A stretch of 4,758 bases of DNA from a virus (Duplodnaviria > Heunggongvirae > Uroviricota > Caudoviricetes). Positions 1 to 4,758 of the stretch are shown piece after piece (position 1 is the first letter of the stretch; each line of letters starts with the position of its first letter). The notes beneath the pieces were generated by a model. The model had not been told where the DNA came from, made no database searches, and worked only from the letters and a program-made list of their open reading frames with translations. The position numbers were made by a program, and so were the translations under genes. The stretch lies in the IMG/VR virus record IMGVR_UViG_2802429219_000009; one strand, 5' to 3'.

Positions 1-2160
1 GGTTTTCCGCCTTCACATGCCGGGACCATTACCGTCTATGAAGGTTCCAGACCAGGTACGCTGAATGATTTTCTCGGTGCCATGACGGAAGATGATGTCA
101 TGCCGGAGGCATTGCGTCGTTTTGAGGCAATGGTGGAAGAAGCGGCACGCAACGCTGAAGCCGCCTCTCAGAGCGCAGCAGCGGCAAAGAAATCCGAAAC
201 TGCAGCGGCATCATCGAAGAACGCGGCGAAAACCTCAGAAACGAATGCAGCTAACAGCGCACAGGCGGCAGCGTCCTCGCAGACTGCATCGGCAAACTCC
301 GCGACAGCAGCCAAAAAATCAGAAACCAATGCGAAAAACAGTGAGACAGCCGCAAAGACGAGCGAAACCAACGCAAAGTCCAGCCAGACGGCAGCGAAAA
401 CAAGCGAAACGAATGCCAAAGCCAGTGAAACTGCGGCGAAAAGCAGTCAGGATGCAGCAGCCGAAAGCGAGAGTGCTGCAGCTGGTTCTGCGACTTCAGC
501 AGCTGGATCAGCAACTGCTGCGGCTAACAGCCAGAAAGCCGCGAAGACGAGCGAAACTAACGCAAAGTCCAGCCAGACGGCAGCGAAGACCAGCGAAACG
601 AATGCCAAAGCCAGCGAAACTGCGGCGAAAAACAGTCAGGATGCAGCAGCCCAAAGCGAGAGTGCCGCAGCTGGTTCTGCAACAGCGGCAGCTAATAGCC
701 AAAAAGTTGCAAAAACCAGTGAAACTAACGCAAAGACGAGTGAAACAAAAGCAGCAGCCAGCGAGACAGAAGCAACGTCAGCCGCAACAAGAGCAGAGAA
801 TGCAGCCCGGATTGCAGAAGATGCCGCTGATCCTGCTTCTGTCCCTCCGCTTCCTGATATCTGGCTACCCTTGAATGATTCTCTGGAAGCGATAACAGGG
901 TATGCCCCGGGCTATAAAACAATAACCATCGGCAGTGATGAAATAACAATGCCTGTTAATGGCATATGCCAATTTAGCCGGGCTTCATCTGCAACGTATA
1001 TTGATAAGTCCGGGCATATTACCGTGGCAGGGAATAACGTTCCTCGTTTTGAAAAATATGGTTTGCTGATAGAGAATCAGCGAACAAACATGTTCGTAAA
1101 TAGTTTTAATCCTGATGCCTGGAATAAAAGCGGTGGTATATCTGTAACATCATCAACAGATGAATTTGAGTTTAAATATGGACGTTTCACGGTAGGAAGC
1201 GATATAGCAGGAACGACAACAGGGCGAAATATATGCACAGTTGCTGGTAACAAAGGCATAGATGTGACTGGCGATGATCAGTACAGTAAAGGTCCGTATG
1301 TTACCGCGTCGTTCAGGGTAAGAAGTGATCTCAATGTTCGCGCACGTATCCGTTTTGAACGATATAACTCGGAAGGATACACCTTCCTTTGCGACGCCTA
1401 TTTGTCATTACAGACCCATGAACTACAAATTACTGGTGGCAATGCCCAGCTATTAACAGCAAACTTTGAAATCGATCCAGGTAGTGGATGGATATATTTT
1501 CAGGCAACACTGAAATGTCTGCCAGAATGGGGAATGGTTGGTACGCAGCTGCAAATTGCAGCCGACAGAGCTGTGGGGTCTTTTGCAACAGGTGACTGGA
1601 TAGAAGTAACCACCCCGCAATTCGAGTATGGTGCTTGTGCAACTTCCTTCATCATAACGACAACTGAGCCAGCGACTCGTGCATCAGATTTATGTAAATT
1701 TCCGCTGATGAAAAATATGTATACCATGCCTTTTACGTTCATGGTGGAAGTCCATAAAAACTGGTTTATTTCTCATAATGCGGCACCGCGTGTCATTGAT
1801 TCAGAAAATCACCAGTCCGGAGGCCCATTTATTATGGGGTTTGGTTCTTCTGGAACTATTAGTCAGGACGGTTATTCGTATTGCGATATAGGCGGGGCTA
1901 ACCGACGTGTATATGAGTCATGCGGAGTAAGAGATCTTGTTATGGGATTCAGGGTTAAGGCTGACGGCATGACATGCTCATTTGCAAATAAGCATATAAG
2001 CACAGAAACAAAAACAGTATGGAAATATATTCGTGAAGCTGCTGTGATTCGTATCGGGGGACAAACGACGACAGGATTACGACACCTTAATGGTCATATA
2101 AAAAACCTCCGTTTCTGGAACAGAGCATTGTCAGATACGCAGCTTAAGGAATACGTATAA
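1..2160 (+). CDS. stf: Side tail fiber protein, 5'-partial (frame open from base 1; first in-window ATG at 82). Lambda Stf/StfR-like N-terminal region and Ala-rich repetitive shaft, then a different C-terminal tip ending in a LamG/concanavalin-like motif
   Basis: Frame 1 is open from nt 1 with no stop until TAA at 2158-2160. The translation begins GFPPSHAGTITVYEGSRPGTLNDFLGAMTEDD, which matches the conserved region of lambda Stf / E. coli StfR as I recall it. Residues about 30-250 are low-complexity KTSETNAK / AAxSxxAA repeats typical of Stf shafts. The C-terminus ends ...GLRHLNGHIKNLRFWNRALSDTQLKEYV, resembling the terminal strand of LamG-like jelly-roll domains. The alternate-frame and antisense ORFs over 92..949 are composition artifacts. 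Confidence 0.85.
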   Translation, partial: GFPPSHAGTITVYEGSRPGTLNDFLGAMTEDDVMPEALRRFEAMVEEAARNAEAASQSAAAAKKSETAAASSKNAAKTSETNAANSAQAAASSQTASANSATAAKKSETNAKNSETAAKTSETNAKSSQTAAKTSETNAKASETAAKSSQDAAAESESAAAGSATSAAGSATAAANSQKAAKTSETNAKSSQTAAKTSETNAKASETAAKNSQDAAAQSESAAAGSATAAANSQKVAKTSETNAKTSETKAAASETEATSAATRAENAARIAEDAADPASVPPLPDIWLPLNDSLEAITGYAPGYKTITIGSDEITMPVNGICQFSRASSATYIDKSGHITVAGNNVPRFEKYGLLIENQRTNMFVNSFNPDAWNKSGGISVTSSTDEFEFKYGRFTVGSDIAGTTTGRNICTVAGNKGIDVTGDDQYSKGPYVTASFRVRSDLNVRARIRFERYNSEGYTFLCDAYLSLQTHELQITGGNAQLLTANFEIDPGSGWIYFQATLKCLPEWGMVGTQLQIAADRAVGSFATGDWIEVTTPQFEYGACATSFIITTTEPATRASDLCKFPLMKNMYTMPFTFMVEVHKNWFISHNAAPRVIDSENHQSGGPFIMGFGSSGTISQDGYSYCDIGGANRRVYESCGVRDLVMGFRVKADGMTCSFANKHISTETKTVWKYIREAAVIRIGGQTTTGLRHLNGHIKNLRFWNRALSDTQLKEYV
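352..750 (+). repeat. In-frame tandem coding duplication in the fiber shaft: copy A 352..540 (189 bp), copy B 541..708 (168 bp), then a diverged partial third copy from 709. Copy A also carries an internal 21-bp duplication (481..501 and 502..522)
   Basis: Read directly: gcaaagacgagcgaaaccaacgcaaagtccagccagacggcagcg... at 352 recurs as gcgaagacgagcgaaactaacgcaaagtccagccagacggcagcg... at 541 with only scattered substitutions. The protein-level copies are AKTSETNAKSSQTAAKTSETNAKASETAAKSSQDAAAESESAAAGSAT(SAAGSAT)AAANSQKA and AKTSETNAKSSQTAAKTSETNAKASETAAKNSQDAAAQSESAAAGSATAAANSQKV. Confidence 0.8.
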
Positions 2161-2429
2161 TGCGGGATATAACATTACGATTCGATAACAGAGAACAGTT
2201 TAACGCAATTGTATATGACAGTGGCCTGTTCAGTCTTGAAGAAGAAAACGGGGTTCTTGTTGATGTTATTGGCTGCGTTATCGATTACGAGGAGCCAGAA
2301 AACGAAAGATGTACAGGCATTGATCGCGGTGGTTTTTTCGTAAATATGAGGATCGTTGATAGCAGTAAAAATATATCTTCTTTAATGCCTTTCATTACGA
2401 CAGATCAGCATGTAAGGACATGGGCTTAA
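2160..2429 (+). CDS. Hypothetical small acidic protein (89 aa), translationally coupled to the tail fiber gene; function unknown
   Basis: ATG at 2160 overlaps the stf stop (TAATG). AAGGA at 2146-2150 lies 9 nt upstream of the ATG. The ORF is co-directional and tightly packed with its neighbours, with no hydrophobic segment. I recognise no family by eye. Confidence 0.55.
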   Translation: MRDITLRFDNREQFNAIVYDSGLFSLEEENGVLVDVIGCVIDYEEPENERCTGIDRGGFFVNMRIVDSSKNISSLMPFITTDQHVRTWA

Positions 2430-2441
2430 TGGAGTAAGACA

Positions 2442-3125
2442 ATGGTTACAAAAACAGTAATTCCGGGAGACATCACCACGCTAAAGGGAGATATTTCCTC
2501 AATTAACGGAAAAGTATCAACGCTTCAGACTGAGATGACCAGTGCAAAGCAGGATATCAGCTCCAGATACACAAAAACTGAAGTTGATAATAAGCTGAAA
2601 AACAAAGTGGAAGTGAACGATCTGGAAAGTGGTCGTTATGGCGGAGATTTTTATCCACTGACAGGTCGTGAAGCGTTTTATTTATGGAATTTGGCCACGA
2701 CTACAGCGGCGGCAAACCTTTATCTTAATCCTGACCCCGCAATTTCGTCTGTGCTGCGGTCAACATCGTCTATCCGCTATAAACATTCAGTAGAGACAAT
2801 AGATTCAGAGCACGCTGATCTCATTTTCAGGATGCGCCCTGTGTGGTACAGGTCACAATGCGAAAATGACAGGCGTGACTGGGGATTCTACGGATTGATT
2901 GCCGAGGAAGTAGGAGAAATTGCCCCTCAGTTTGTACACTGGCGACCAGCTAACGAAGATGATGCACCGGAAGCTATTTCCAGCAATGGCCTTGTTGCCG
3001 AAGGTGTAATGTACGAACGTCTGGTTGTTCCACTGATTCACCATATCCAGAAGCTGACTGAAAGAGTTGATGAACTTGAGTCAGAATTAAAGTTGTTATC
3101 CGTTTCCCGAAGCGATATCGGATAA
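2442..3125 (+). CDS. Tail fiber-like protein (227 aa) with an N-terminal coiled-coil-like segment and a C-terminal intramolecular chaperone domain (peptidase S74 / endosialidase-chaperone type)
   Basis: GGAG at 2431-2434 lies 7 nt upstream of the ATG at 2442. Residues about 105-220 (nt about 2754-3101) read SSIRYKHSVETIDSEHADLIFRMRPVWYRS...WGFYGLIAEEVGEIAPQFVHW...GLVAEGVMYERLVVPLIHHIQKLTERVDELESELKLL. This follows the S74 chaperone pattern (S-D-x-R-x-K-x-N-I ... P-V-x-Y ... G-F-I-A-Q-E-V ... Y-x-x-L-I-P-L-L-I-x-A-I-x-E-L ... coiled coil) recalled from endosialidase and T5 L-shaped fiber C-termini. Confidence 0.8.
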   Translation: MVTKTVIPGDITTLKGDISSINGKVSTLQTEMTSAKQDISSRYTKTEVDNKLKNKVEVNDLESGRYGGDFYPLTGREAFYLWNLATTTAAANLYLNPDPAISSVLRSTSSIRYKHSVETIDSEHADLIFRMRPVWYRSQCENDRRDWGFYGLIAEEVGEIAPQFVHWRPANEDDAPEAISSNGLVAEGVMYERLVVPLIHHIQKLTERVDELESELKLLSVSRSDIG

Positions 3126-3135
3126 AGGAGGAGTA

Positions 3136-3429
3136 ATGGATATAACACCTTTCCTTCATGCACTTTGTGCTGTGGCTGCGCAGGTACTGATTGGCCTTTT
3201 TACCGGAAACTGGGTTTACGGTGCGATAGCTGGTTGTACGTTCTTCATTGCGCGTGAACACACCCAGGCAGAATATCGCTGGATTGAAATGTTCGGGCAT
3301 GGCAAGCGGATTAACATGCCGTGGTGGGGCGGTTTTGATCCGCGTGTTTGGGATGTGGCAAGCCTGATAGATTTTGCTGTGCCGGTGGTGGCGTGTCTGC
3401 TGGTCTGGCTGTTGGTTAATCGTGGGTGA
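3136..3429 (+). CDS. Small hydrophobic membrane protein (97 aa, 2-3 predicted transmembrane segments), function unknown; candidate lysogenic-conversion or superinfection-exclusion gene
   Basis: A strong RBS (AAGGAGG at about 3125-3131) lies 5-6 nt upstream of the ATG at 3136. There are hydrophobic stretches at residues about 6-38 (FLHALCAVAAQVLIGLFTGNWVYGAIAGCTFFIA) and about 74-94 (VASLIDFAVPVVACLLVWLLV). It is the last gene of the co-directional block. Confidence 0.7.
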   Translation: MDITPFLHALCAVAAQVLIGLFTGNWVYGAIAGCTFFIAREHTQAEYRWIEMFGHGKRINMPWWGGFDPRVWDVASLIDFAVPVVACLLVWLLVNRG

Positions 3430-3439
3430 AAAAAGGTGA

Positions 3440-3559
3440 GCTGTATATGCAACGGAGGAAGAAACCCCGTTGCTGGAAGCCAGGAAAAAGTATCGGGTGT
3501 TGCTGAACCGTGTTGATACGTCAACTGCACAGGATATTGAATGGCCAGCACTGCCGTAG
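3440..3559 (+). pseudogene. tfa: 3' relic of a tail fiber assembly (tfa) gene: a start-less 39-codon frame encoding the conserved Tfa C-terminus
   Basis: Frame 2 is open only from 3440 (preceded by an in-frame TGA at 3437-3439) to TAG at 3557-3559 and encodes [39 protein letters not shown]. The motif [11 protein letters not shown]-x-A-x-DIEWP is the conserved C-terminal signature of Tfa/U-type tail fiber assembly proteins as I recall them. There is no ATG and nothing upstream to complete a full-length tfa. Confidence 0.6.
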
Positions 3560-3656
3560 GGTAAAACATATAAATTCTATAATTAGATGTATCTTTCCAT
3601 TTACGGCAAGGAAGGGGGCTTGGAAGACGTAAAGCATCTCACACCGAGATTATTTT

Positions 3657-4247
3657 TTATATGTCAGGTGTCTGAAGTTTTGCTTTGGCTCTTAAAATGG
3701 TTTGCCGCGAGGTTTTGAATTCCCGGGCAATGGCACTTATACTTACACCTGACTTAATCCGTTCGAATACCACCTGTTTCTGTTCTTCATTTAACACAGG
3801 TGGTCGACCAAAACGTTTCCCTGCGCCCCGGGCTCTTACTATCCCGGAATGAGTGCGTTCAAGTAAAAGGTCTCGTTCAAATTCAGCGACTGCTGAAATT
3901 ACTTGCATCATCATTTTTCCTGTTGGACTGGTCAGGTCAATGCCCCCCAATGCTAAGCAATGCACTCTGATACCTGTTTCGGTCAGTTGTTCCACTGTTT
4001 TCCTGATATCCATTGCATTACAACCAAGGCGATCCAATTTTGTCACAATCAATTGATCACCACATTTCAGGCGAGCAAGCAACCGGTTAAAACCAGGACG
4101 CTCACTGGTTGCTGCTGAGCCGCTAATGTGTTCTTCGATTATTTGCTGAGGTTTGATTTTAAAACCTGCACTTTCGATTTCCCGGCGTTGATTTTCGGTG
4201 GTCTGATCCAGCGTTGATATCCGACAGTAAGCAAAAATTCGAGACAT
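3657..4247 (-). CDS. pinR: Serine recombinase / DNA invertase of the Pin family (PinR/PinQ-like), 196 aa
   Basis: Intact 196-aa ORF on the - strand. The N-terminus [15 protein letters not shown] carries the catalytic-serine motif of resolvase/invertase-type serine recombinases (Ser at position 11), and the C-terminus has an HTH-like segment ([21 protein letters not shown]). From memory this is essentially the E. coli cryptic-prophage PinR/PinQ sequence; I cannot distinguish pinR from pinQ here. Its placement convergent to the stf/tfa genes matches Rac/Qin/e14 organisation. Confidence 0.92.
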
Positions 4248-4340
4248 AGTGAGACTCTATACGAAATTGGTGTTCATATCATAATGCATCTCAGAAAATA
4301 ATTTTGATTATTTTTGTGCATATTTGTATGTGCACGTTCG
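4248..4340 (-). promoter_or_regulatory. Putative pin promoter/leader region in AT-rich DNA (candidate -10 TATGAT on the - strand, + coordinates 4278-4283; no convincing -35 found)
   Basis: This is the non-coding stretch immediately upstream of the pin start codon, and it has a weak RBS (AGAG). Only a -10-like hexamer was identified by eye, so this is a low-confidence positional inference. Confidence 0.3.
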
Positions 4341-4696
4341 AAAATAAACGAATGCGTATGCAACCCCGTAATTTTGGTGAGACCCAAAATCGATTTTGTG
4401 AAAAATGGCTTTAACTCGGTTTGTTTTTCGAGTTCCGGGCGGACTCAAGGAAGAAGAATAGTGTTGCGTGTTATTTTAACCAGATTTCAAGTTGTTTGGT
4501 CGTGGAAAAGTGGAGCAAAATGTTGTTAAAGTGGAAAAATGATAAAAAAGTAAGTTTATTATATTACATTTTACCATTTAAATTTTGGTTGTCTTTAAGA
4601 ACTGATATCGCTGTTTGTAATAATTCTTTGTTGAGCTGGCCCCCTGAAATACCAGACAGTAGATGTATCTTAAAATAAGAGATAGGCTTGGATATA

Positions 4697-4758
4697 TGTC
4701 TAACACTAGTTCTAATTTTGAGATGGCTGGCGTTTTGTTAGGAAAAGAGGTGCGTAAA
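4697..4758 (+). CDS. Possible 5' end of a + strand ORF running out of the window (MSNTSSNFEMAGVLLGKEVRK...)
   Basis: ATG at 4697 is preceded by AAGAGATAGG about 8 nt upstream, and the frame stays open to the window end. It is only 20 codons and AT-rich, so this is speculative. Confidence 0.2.

Follow-up and report, generated by a model that had tools for sequence, protein, structure and literature searches.

A composite of prophage spacer, ydfK remnant, and insertion-sequence end upstream of a pin invertase gene

What occupies the AT-rich DNA upstream of a prophage-type DNA invertase gene, and does any of it act as a switch for that gene? We consider this question for a viral stretch of 4,758 nucleotides (IMG/VR record IMGVR_UViG_2802429219_000009), the whole of which is called the window below. 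Positions 4248 to 4758, directly upstream of pin, have a G+C content of 34.2%, compared with 45.1% for the whole window and 44.8% for pin. A first-pass annotation had described these positions as an ORF-poor leader of about 500 bp containing palindromes, and had suggested that they could hold a promoter and operator for pin, a leader for a downstream gene, or a small RNA. The AT richness of this DNA is real, and a direct count returned the figure given for 4501 to 4560, 17 G+C in 60 positions, which is below that of the coding regions. However, the DNA is intergenic only over 316 bp (4248 to 4563), and the rest belongs to ydfK and to an insertion sequence (IS).

A three-part composite at the end of a Qin-type prophage

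Positions 4248 to 4758 join three parts, namely a spacer, the ydfK tail, and one end of an IS, and this composite lies at one end of a lambdoid prophage of the Qin type, integrated in ydfJ. Together with pin, the parts are:

3657 to 4247, minus strand: pin, a pinQ/pinR-type serine DNA invertase gene encoding 196 aa (ORF and Pfam)
4248 to 4563, minus strand: the ydfK-pin intergenic spacer, 316 bp (identity to the K-12 spacers), which on the flanking annotation would take in the untranslated end of ydfK transcripts as well as pin's promoter and leader
4564 to 4632, minus strand: ydfK 3' remnant, a truncated pseudogene, with the last 22 codons NKELLQTAISVLKDNQNLNGKM and a TAA stop at 4566 to 4564
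4632 to 4758, plus strand: left end of an IS3-family (IS2-like) element, identified by identity to complete copies and running off the window

Because ydfK is truncated and the orfA gene of the IS runs off the window, both genes were invisible in the list of open reading frames on which the first-pass annotation drew.

The pin product matches the Pfam families Resolvase (2.5e-36) and HTH_7 (3.8e-11), and the gene is 99.2% identical at the nucleotide level to both pinQ and pinR of K-12; its counterpart is annotated pinQ in a locus (L126) that is 99.9% identical. In a megablast search of 4248 to 4758 against 5,426 complete E. coli genomes, positions 4248 to 4632 were 99.7% identical to the pinQ-ydfK region of thousands of genomes. 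The spacer was found in 2,801 of the 5,426 (99.7% identical over 316 bp), the match reached at least 99% identity in 2,325 records, and RefSeq places no annotation under it in about 2,800 genomes. In E. coli genomes, the ydfJ end of the Qin prophage carries pinQ, the unannotated 316-bp spacer, ydfK, and ynfT in succession on a single strand, and the Rac prophage has the same layout with pinR, ynaE, and ynaM. Comparison with these two regions, which the first-pass annotation had proposed, gives a simple answer: the spacer is that spacer. It is identical at 314 of 316 positions (99.4%) to the ydfK-pinQ copy of K-12 (Qin; NC_000913.3, 1633306 to 1633621) and likewise to the ynaE-pinR copy (Rac; NC_000913.3, 1433675 to 1433990), with the same two substitutions, at 4332 and 4304, separating it from both, and it shares their 316-bp length, flanking genes, and orientation. 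In the window, too, pin and the 3' end of ydfK are both on the minus strand, with stf and a tfa remnant upstream on the plus strand. The normal order is ynfT, ydfK, and pin, all on the minus strand, with the 316-bp AT-rich spacer between ydfK and pin. In line with this arrangement, ydfK is annotated at the equivalent position in four loci (L001, L004, L007, and L126), and one genome matches positions 1 to 4632 of the window at 99.9% and has an intact ydfK. The pin-spacer-ydfK module is also carried by the viable lambdoid phages 2H10, mEp460, Tritos, and Kati.

In the window, unlike in the Qin and Rac copies of K-12, an IS cuts ydfK short so that only 69 nt of its 3' end are left, and pin is split from the ydfK promoter region. 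Positions 4564 to 4632 are identical to K-12 ydfK at 69 of 69 nucleotides, and the alignment with intact ydfK loci breaks after 4632; of the 77-codon frame that encodes YdfK, a cold shock protein, only the last 22 codons and the stop are present. From 4632/4633 onward, the DNA matches, at 99.3% identity, the left end of an element whose complete copies are annotated "IS3 family transposase, programmed frameshift". Its terminal inverted repeat reads TGAGCTGGCCCCCTGAAATACCAGACAG, and the left repeat at 4632 to 4659 pairs with the right repeat in two loci that carry the element, L003 and L128. The beginning of orfA (from ATG 4696) is identical to that of full copies, and relatives are annotated from ATG 4723. 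A terminal repeat starting with TG and an inward-reading orfA with a helix-turn-helix transposase domain (HTH_Tnp_1, 3.8e-18 in the full copies) together place the element in the IS3 family. It resembles IS2 and IS2-like elements in its terminal repeat, which likewise starts with TG and contains GGCCCCCTGAA..CCAGACA, in an orfA with HTH_Tnp_1, and in the programmed frameshift of orfAB in full copies elsewhere. It departs from the IS2 family model in its match to the NCBIfam model "IS2 repressor TnpA" (1.2e-46), which at 158 bits falls below the 229-bit cut-off.

An IS2-like element of the IS3 family is inserted at 4632/4633 with its transposase reading away from pin, cutting pin off from the rest of ydfK and from the cold-shock-type promoter region that precedes ydfK. 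Neither the 5,426 complete genomes of E. coli nor IMG/VR yielded the exact ydfK::IS junction; as an allele, the ydfK cut by the IS is new but holds no special interest. The idea of a leader for a downstream gene finds no support in this anatomy: downstream on the plus strand there is only an insertion sequence, and the neighboring gene, ydfK, is upstream of pin and shares its strand. Taken as a whole, the region is very probably explained by a spacer, a ydfK stump, and an IS end, with pin having a promoter of its own. It is the already known K-12-type spacer, whose promoter has already been catalogued.

Several further features of the IS and of its surroundings were observed. Both full copies of the element (L003, 2004 to 3336; L128, about 1610 to 2965) are flanked by 15-bp direct repeats, GATAAAAACTTTGTG and AATATAATCTATGCT. 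Target duplications of the IS3 family are usually short, and 15 bp is much longer. The three insertion sites, including that in the window, are all AT-rich and have a ...CT.TG.. motif beside the left end; for the element in the window, a target duplication of 15 bp, AATAATTCTTTGT or thereabouts, is predicted. On the other side of pin, the plus strand carries a tail fiber module (82 to 3429) unlike stfQ-tfaQ of K-12. It comprises a 692-aa fiber that is rich in Ala, Ser, and Thr and has KTSETNAK-type repeats, an ORF of 89 aa, and two further proteins, one of 227 aa in which Peptidase_S74 (an intramolecular chaperone domain) is recognized and a hydrophobic one of 97 aa that has no family match. 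Between the 97-aa ORF and pin lies the 3' remnant of a tail fiber assembly gene (tfa; 3449 to 3559, plus strand), a pseudogene in the 99.9%-identical locus, on which a sub-threshold match to Rfam IS009 falls (3365 to 3525, plus strand; 63.5 bits against a gathering score of 117), the sole Rfam hit anywhere in the window at E ≤ 1. At least 80% of the window is covered in only 7 of the 5,426 genomes.

How far the module can be followed by comparison is set by ydfK. In a survey of one genome per species, distant relatives of YdfK came only from Escherichia and Shigella, barring obvious contaminant contigs, and two of the copies were decayed; this confinement makes a deep comparative analysis impossible. 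Contigs labelled Caldithrix, Alistipes, Draconibacterium, and Chryseobacterium (L008, L010, L013, and L016) carry a ydfK that is 99 to 100% identical to the E. coli gene, almost certainly as E. coli contamination of the assemblies.

Possible transcriptional inputs to pin across the spacer

Two elements of the spacer bear on how pin might be transcribed:

4307 to 4334, minus strand: sigma-70 promoter-like site for pin, with -35 TGCACA (4334 to 4329), 16 bp, and -10 AATAAT (4312 to 4307); consensus scan, 9 of 12 matches
4450 to 4563, minus strand: C-rich, G-poor untranslated tract adjoining the ydfK stop, by its composition a candidate for a rut-like region where Rho would load

The first-pass suggestion of a pin promoter gains support from the first of these elements, which lies on the pin strand, and from genomic SELEX in K-12, which proposed the same element. 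An RpoD-holoenzyme site was found in both K-12 spacers, ydfK-pinQ and ynaE-pinR (Shimada et al. 2014, PMC3946193), and TGTACA-16-AATAAT was put forward as the promoter of both pinQ and pinR (PMC3946193). The substitution at 4332 falls within the -35 hexamer, which reads TGCACA in the window and TGTACA in K-12. In this AT-rich stretch, promoter-like sites of this kind occur about 2.7-fold more often than in shuffles, so that a consensus match alone is weak. Considering the match and the K-12 SELEX data together, we suggest that pin may be transcribed from its own weak sigma-70 promoter (TGCACA-16-AATAAT, 4334 to 4307), with a start that would lie near 4300 and a predicted leader of about 53 nt. 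The same SELEX table marks an H-NS site in the ydfK-pinQ spacer and none in the near-identical ynaE-pinR spacer, a mark on one of two copies by a SELEX-chip method that cannot tell the Rac copy from the Qin copy (PMC3946193). The low G+C of the region would fit binding by H-NS, as reported for the Qin copy of K-12.

Two other sequences toward pin are candidates from the sequence itself. The pin leader has a putative 10-codon upstream ORF (4257 to 4289, minus strand; ATG CAT TAT GAT ATG AAC ACC AAT TTC GTA TAG, MHYDMNTNFV*), whose stop overlaps a GAG that is a possible ribosome-binding site for pin and which is kept, with N changed to Y, in the diverged allele described below. Within the ydfK remnant, a consensus match to an extended -10 promoter, AAGACA-16-TAAAAT preceded by TG, points toward pin (4568 to 4595, minus strand). 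In a viral contig from IMG/VR (L104, variant v29), an insertion lies exactly at the proposed -35 of pin, the equivalent of about 4330 in the window; we take it to be the end of an IS1, and on this count the spacer and its surroundings collect IS insertions repeatedly.

A second route to pin may be read-through from ydfK. One differentially expressed transcript on tiling arrays spans ydfK and pinQ (PMC6505713). At the level of single cells, pinQ and ydfK mark different rare expression clusters (PMC10522482), which fits separate promoters. Together, the tiling-array transcript, the separate clusters, and the SELEX data agree with a spacer that transcription from ydfK crosses and in which pin has a promoter of its own as well. 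A scan of both strands of 3400 to 4758 returned no terminator-like site, and neither the ATTTTGG-N6-CCAAAAT repeat nor the AACTCG-N10-CGAGTT repeat, both considered below, is followed by a T-run on either strand; pinQ, pinR, ydfK, and ynaE are unlisted in the Term-seq supplements. In the first 78 nt past the ydfK stop, C outnumbers G on the sense strand by 19 to 2, a more extreme ratio than in any other 78-nt stretch on either strand of the whole window, and the tract from 4450 to 4563 is weakly structured in the minimum free energy fold. In composition, it resembles a rut region, that is, some 70 to 80 nt of untranslated, C-rich, G-poor, and weakly structured RNA, and it is put forward by inference only as a candidate Rho-loading region. 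Judging from this composition, Rho would load on the untranslated part of ydfK transcripts and limit read-through into pin. A literature search found no effect of bicyclomycin tied to these gene pairs. In this window, Rho-limited read-through would be moot in any case because ydfK is cut off from its promoter.

A diverged allele of the spacer is typified by phage 2H10 (NC_049950) and E. coli O145 RM9154. It has the same order of tfa, pin, spacer, and ydfK, and its identity to the window is 99.8% in pin and 97.4% in ydfK but 91% in the spacer. Relative to the window, its spacer has a 63-nt insertion directly after the ydfK stop and differs in both promoter hexamers and in both the ATTTTGG and AACTCG repeats; near-identity is kept only over the 52 nt that precede the pin ATG and over roughly the first 75 nt beyond this insertion. 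The insertion opens with a run of C (L021, 3817 to 3879; L005, 2814 to 2878), and the Qin and Rac copies are without it. The hexamers read AATAAG at -10 and TATACA at -35, so the proposed pin promoter is not strictly conserved. The lower conservation of the spacer relative to the genes on either side speaks against dense functional constraint, and it also leaves conservation unable to single out the bases that matter.

Palindromes and other readings of the spacer

The symmetric elements that drew attention to the spacer are:

4371 to 4398: three alternating heptamers, ATTTTGG (4371 to 4377), CCAAAAT (4384 to 4390), and ATTTTGt (4392 to 4398)
4385 to 4398: 14-bp perfect palindrome CAAAATCGATTTTG, overlapping ATTTTGG-N6-CCAAAAT
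4413 to 4434: 6-bp inverted repeat AACTCG-N10-CGAGTT

The first-pass annotation had placed ATTTTGG-N6-CCAAAAT correctly at 4371 to 4390 but called it imperfect, whereas its arms pair at all 7 of 7 positions; it was right about the AACTCG-N10-CGAGTT repeat and missed the 14-bp palindrome. We counted perfect inverted repeats against 1000 dinucleotide-preserving shuffles, with overlapping registers of one repeat counted several times. With loops of 3 to 12 nt allowed, six repeats had arms of 6 nt or longer, against 2.2 ± 1.9 in the shuffles, 6.3% of which reached six; three had 7-nt arms, against 0.6 expected (5.8% of shuffles). With p about 0.06, the palindromes do not exceed chance frequency, and most likely they are incidental to the AT richness of this DNA.

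Comparison among alleles bears on the same point. The set consisted of 97 further IMG/VR copies retrieved with a degenerate pattern (38 distinct, and 12 distinct in the core) and two decayed chromosomal copies. In the cluster at 4371 to 4398, the A/T pairs are invariant across the 12 alleles. Six of the 12 have C-G as the outer pair of the 14-bp palindrome, one has A-T, and five have mismatched bases there; an apparent compensatory change from C-G to A-T, seen in the first two alleles, was undone by A-A and A-G in further alleles. In the 2H10-type allele, the N6 palindrome becomes TTTTGG-N5-CCAAAA. The AACTCG repeat, read on the pin-sense strand, varies in its 5' arm (AACUCG, AGUUCG, and AUUUCG) and is fixed in its 3' arm, and its second pair is broken in 3 of the 12 alleles. 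Changes in this arm that preserve wobble pairing were considered as a sign of stem conservation and rejected, being contradicted by the third allele, ATTTCG. Across the 12 alleles, no pair in the ATTTTGG and AACTCG repeats is changed on both sides, and the counts do not exceed those in shuffles, a comparison in which divergence is small and power low.

These data weigh on the proposal that the cluster at 4371 to 4398, with or without the repeat at 4413 to 4434, is the operator of a dimeric regulator controlling pin, for example in its induction by phage T2. The position is suitable, with a perfect 7-bp repeat and a perfect 14-bp palindrome 40 to 70 bp upstream of the proposed -35, and pinQ/pinR RNA rises 14-fold upon T2 infection (PMC12529663). 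The core AAAATCGATTTT is also identical in all alleles seen, although this invariance is partly by construction, as the search pattern required the core. Against these points, inverted repeats occur at chance frequency for the composition, the ATTTTGG and AACTCG repeats show no two-sided pair changes, 5 of 12 alleles leave the outer bases of the 14-bp palindrome without a pair, the N6 spacing shortens to N5 in the 2H10-type allele, and no candidate regulator gene adjoins the cluster. With the palindromes at chance frequency and free of compensatory change across alleles, the first-pass reading of an operator loses its footing, and we regard it as unlikely.

The small RNA proposed by the first-pass annotation is not supported either. 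One could imagine an sRNA derived from the 3' untranslated region of ydfK, or a structured cis element such as a thermosensor in the pin leader, as the spacer is transcribed within the ydfK-pinQ transcript (PMC6505713), and the two AACUCG-arm changes of the 2H10-type allele yield G-U and U-G pairing that only the sense strand allows. Yet a search of the whole window against Rfam 15 gave no match at E ≤ 1 in 4248 to 4758, no terminator-like 3' end is present, and the folding energy of the spacer is ordinary (z = -1.5 sense and -0.5 antisense, not significant). The third allele, AUUUCG, breaks the stem with no two-sided change to repair it, and the Hfq-bound and riboswitch-like candidates of these genes lie in the 5' untranslated region of ydfK/ynaE, outside the window (PMC4152368). 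A functional RNA in the spacer is therefore very unlikely, and our literature search found no sRNA named after these gene pairs.

Because the gene downstream is an invertase, we also considered the palindromes as a relic or variant of a pix-like crossover site bound by Pin, serving autoregulation, as with Cin at cixL, or left over from a former invertible segment. The crossover sites of Hin-family invertases span 26 bp, with two inverted 12-bp half-sites TTnTCnnAAACC around a 2-bp core, and in Gin, Cin, Hin, and Pin (e14) the invertase promoter either overlaps this site or has it close by on its upstream side. These promoters likewise consist of AT-rich DNA with dyad symmetries and a weak promoter before a serine invertase gene. 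In the window, two AAAAT arms surround a 2-bp CG center, and the outward arm TTTTCACAAAAT (4404 to 4393, minus strand) matches the half-site at 8 of its 10 specified positions. However, the partner half GAGACCCAAAAT matches at only 4 of 10, so that the best candidate, 4379 to 4404, fits at 8 of 10 in one half and 4 of 10 in the other, and the window holds 21 half-site matches with up to two mismatches, in line with the chance expectation of 18.3 ± 4.3. There is no second, inverted copy of the palindrome region in the window to bound an invertible segment. The e14 pix site CCTTCTCCCAAACCAA, which PinQ uses (PMC12529663), is absent from the window even with three mismatches allowed. Thus, in contrast to the Gin, Cin, Hin, and Pin (e14) systems, this locus has no recognizable crossover site or adjacent invertible segment, and its pin converges on the tail fiber genes where theirs diverge from the invertible segment. 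PinQ is moreover reported to act in trans on e14, and a BLAST survey saw no inversions in Qin or Rac (PMC12529663). We consider a crossover site here highly improbable.

A real small protein gene, whether one of the two plus-strand, TTG-initiated ORFs that the first-pass annotation had described as low-complexity and lacking convincing starts (4314 to 4529, 71 aa; 4421 to 4678, 85 aa) or one of the minus-strand ORFs of 46 aa and 37 aa called in some phage annotations, can hardly be credited: hypothetical proteins are annotated in the spacer in records of the phages Kati, Turner, and HannyBb, and ynfT and ynaM are very small neighboring genes in the same module, but all four ORFs of at least 36 aa start with TTG in the window, none is intact in the 2H10-type allele (where both plus-strand frames are broken up, and hence are not genes), and RefSeq has no annotation under the spacer in its roughly 2,800 genomes.

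Bearing on the induction of pinQ and pinR

The composite explanation, with pin behind a promoter of its own, leaves this DNA as a common and almost invariant prophage spacer in which the IS insertion is a routine pseudogenization; by itself it is of little importance. Its single link to an open question is the wiring, from this spacer, of the 14-fold induction of pinQ/pinR. PinQ and PinR invert the P segment of e14 in trans and block adsorption of phage T2 (PMC12529663), and it is their RNA that rises upon T2 infection (PMC12529663). The cis control of this induction must lie in the 316-bp spacer or come from ydfK read-through. It is conceivable, though unlikely, that the spacer is the switch for a trans-acting invertase, responding to T2 or to cold-shock read-through from ydfK past a Rho-sensitive tract, with 4371 to 4398 as the operator of a regulator. 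If this were true, the IS insertion in this strain would have uncoupled pin from the ydfK input. A strain of this kind, in which ydfK is cut off by an IS, offers a natural test of the read-through route to pin.
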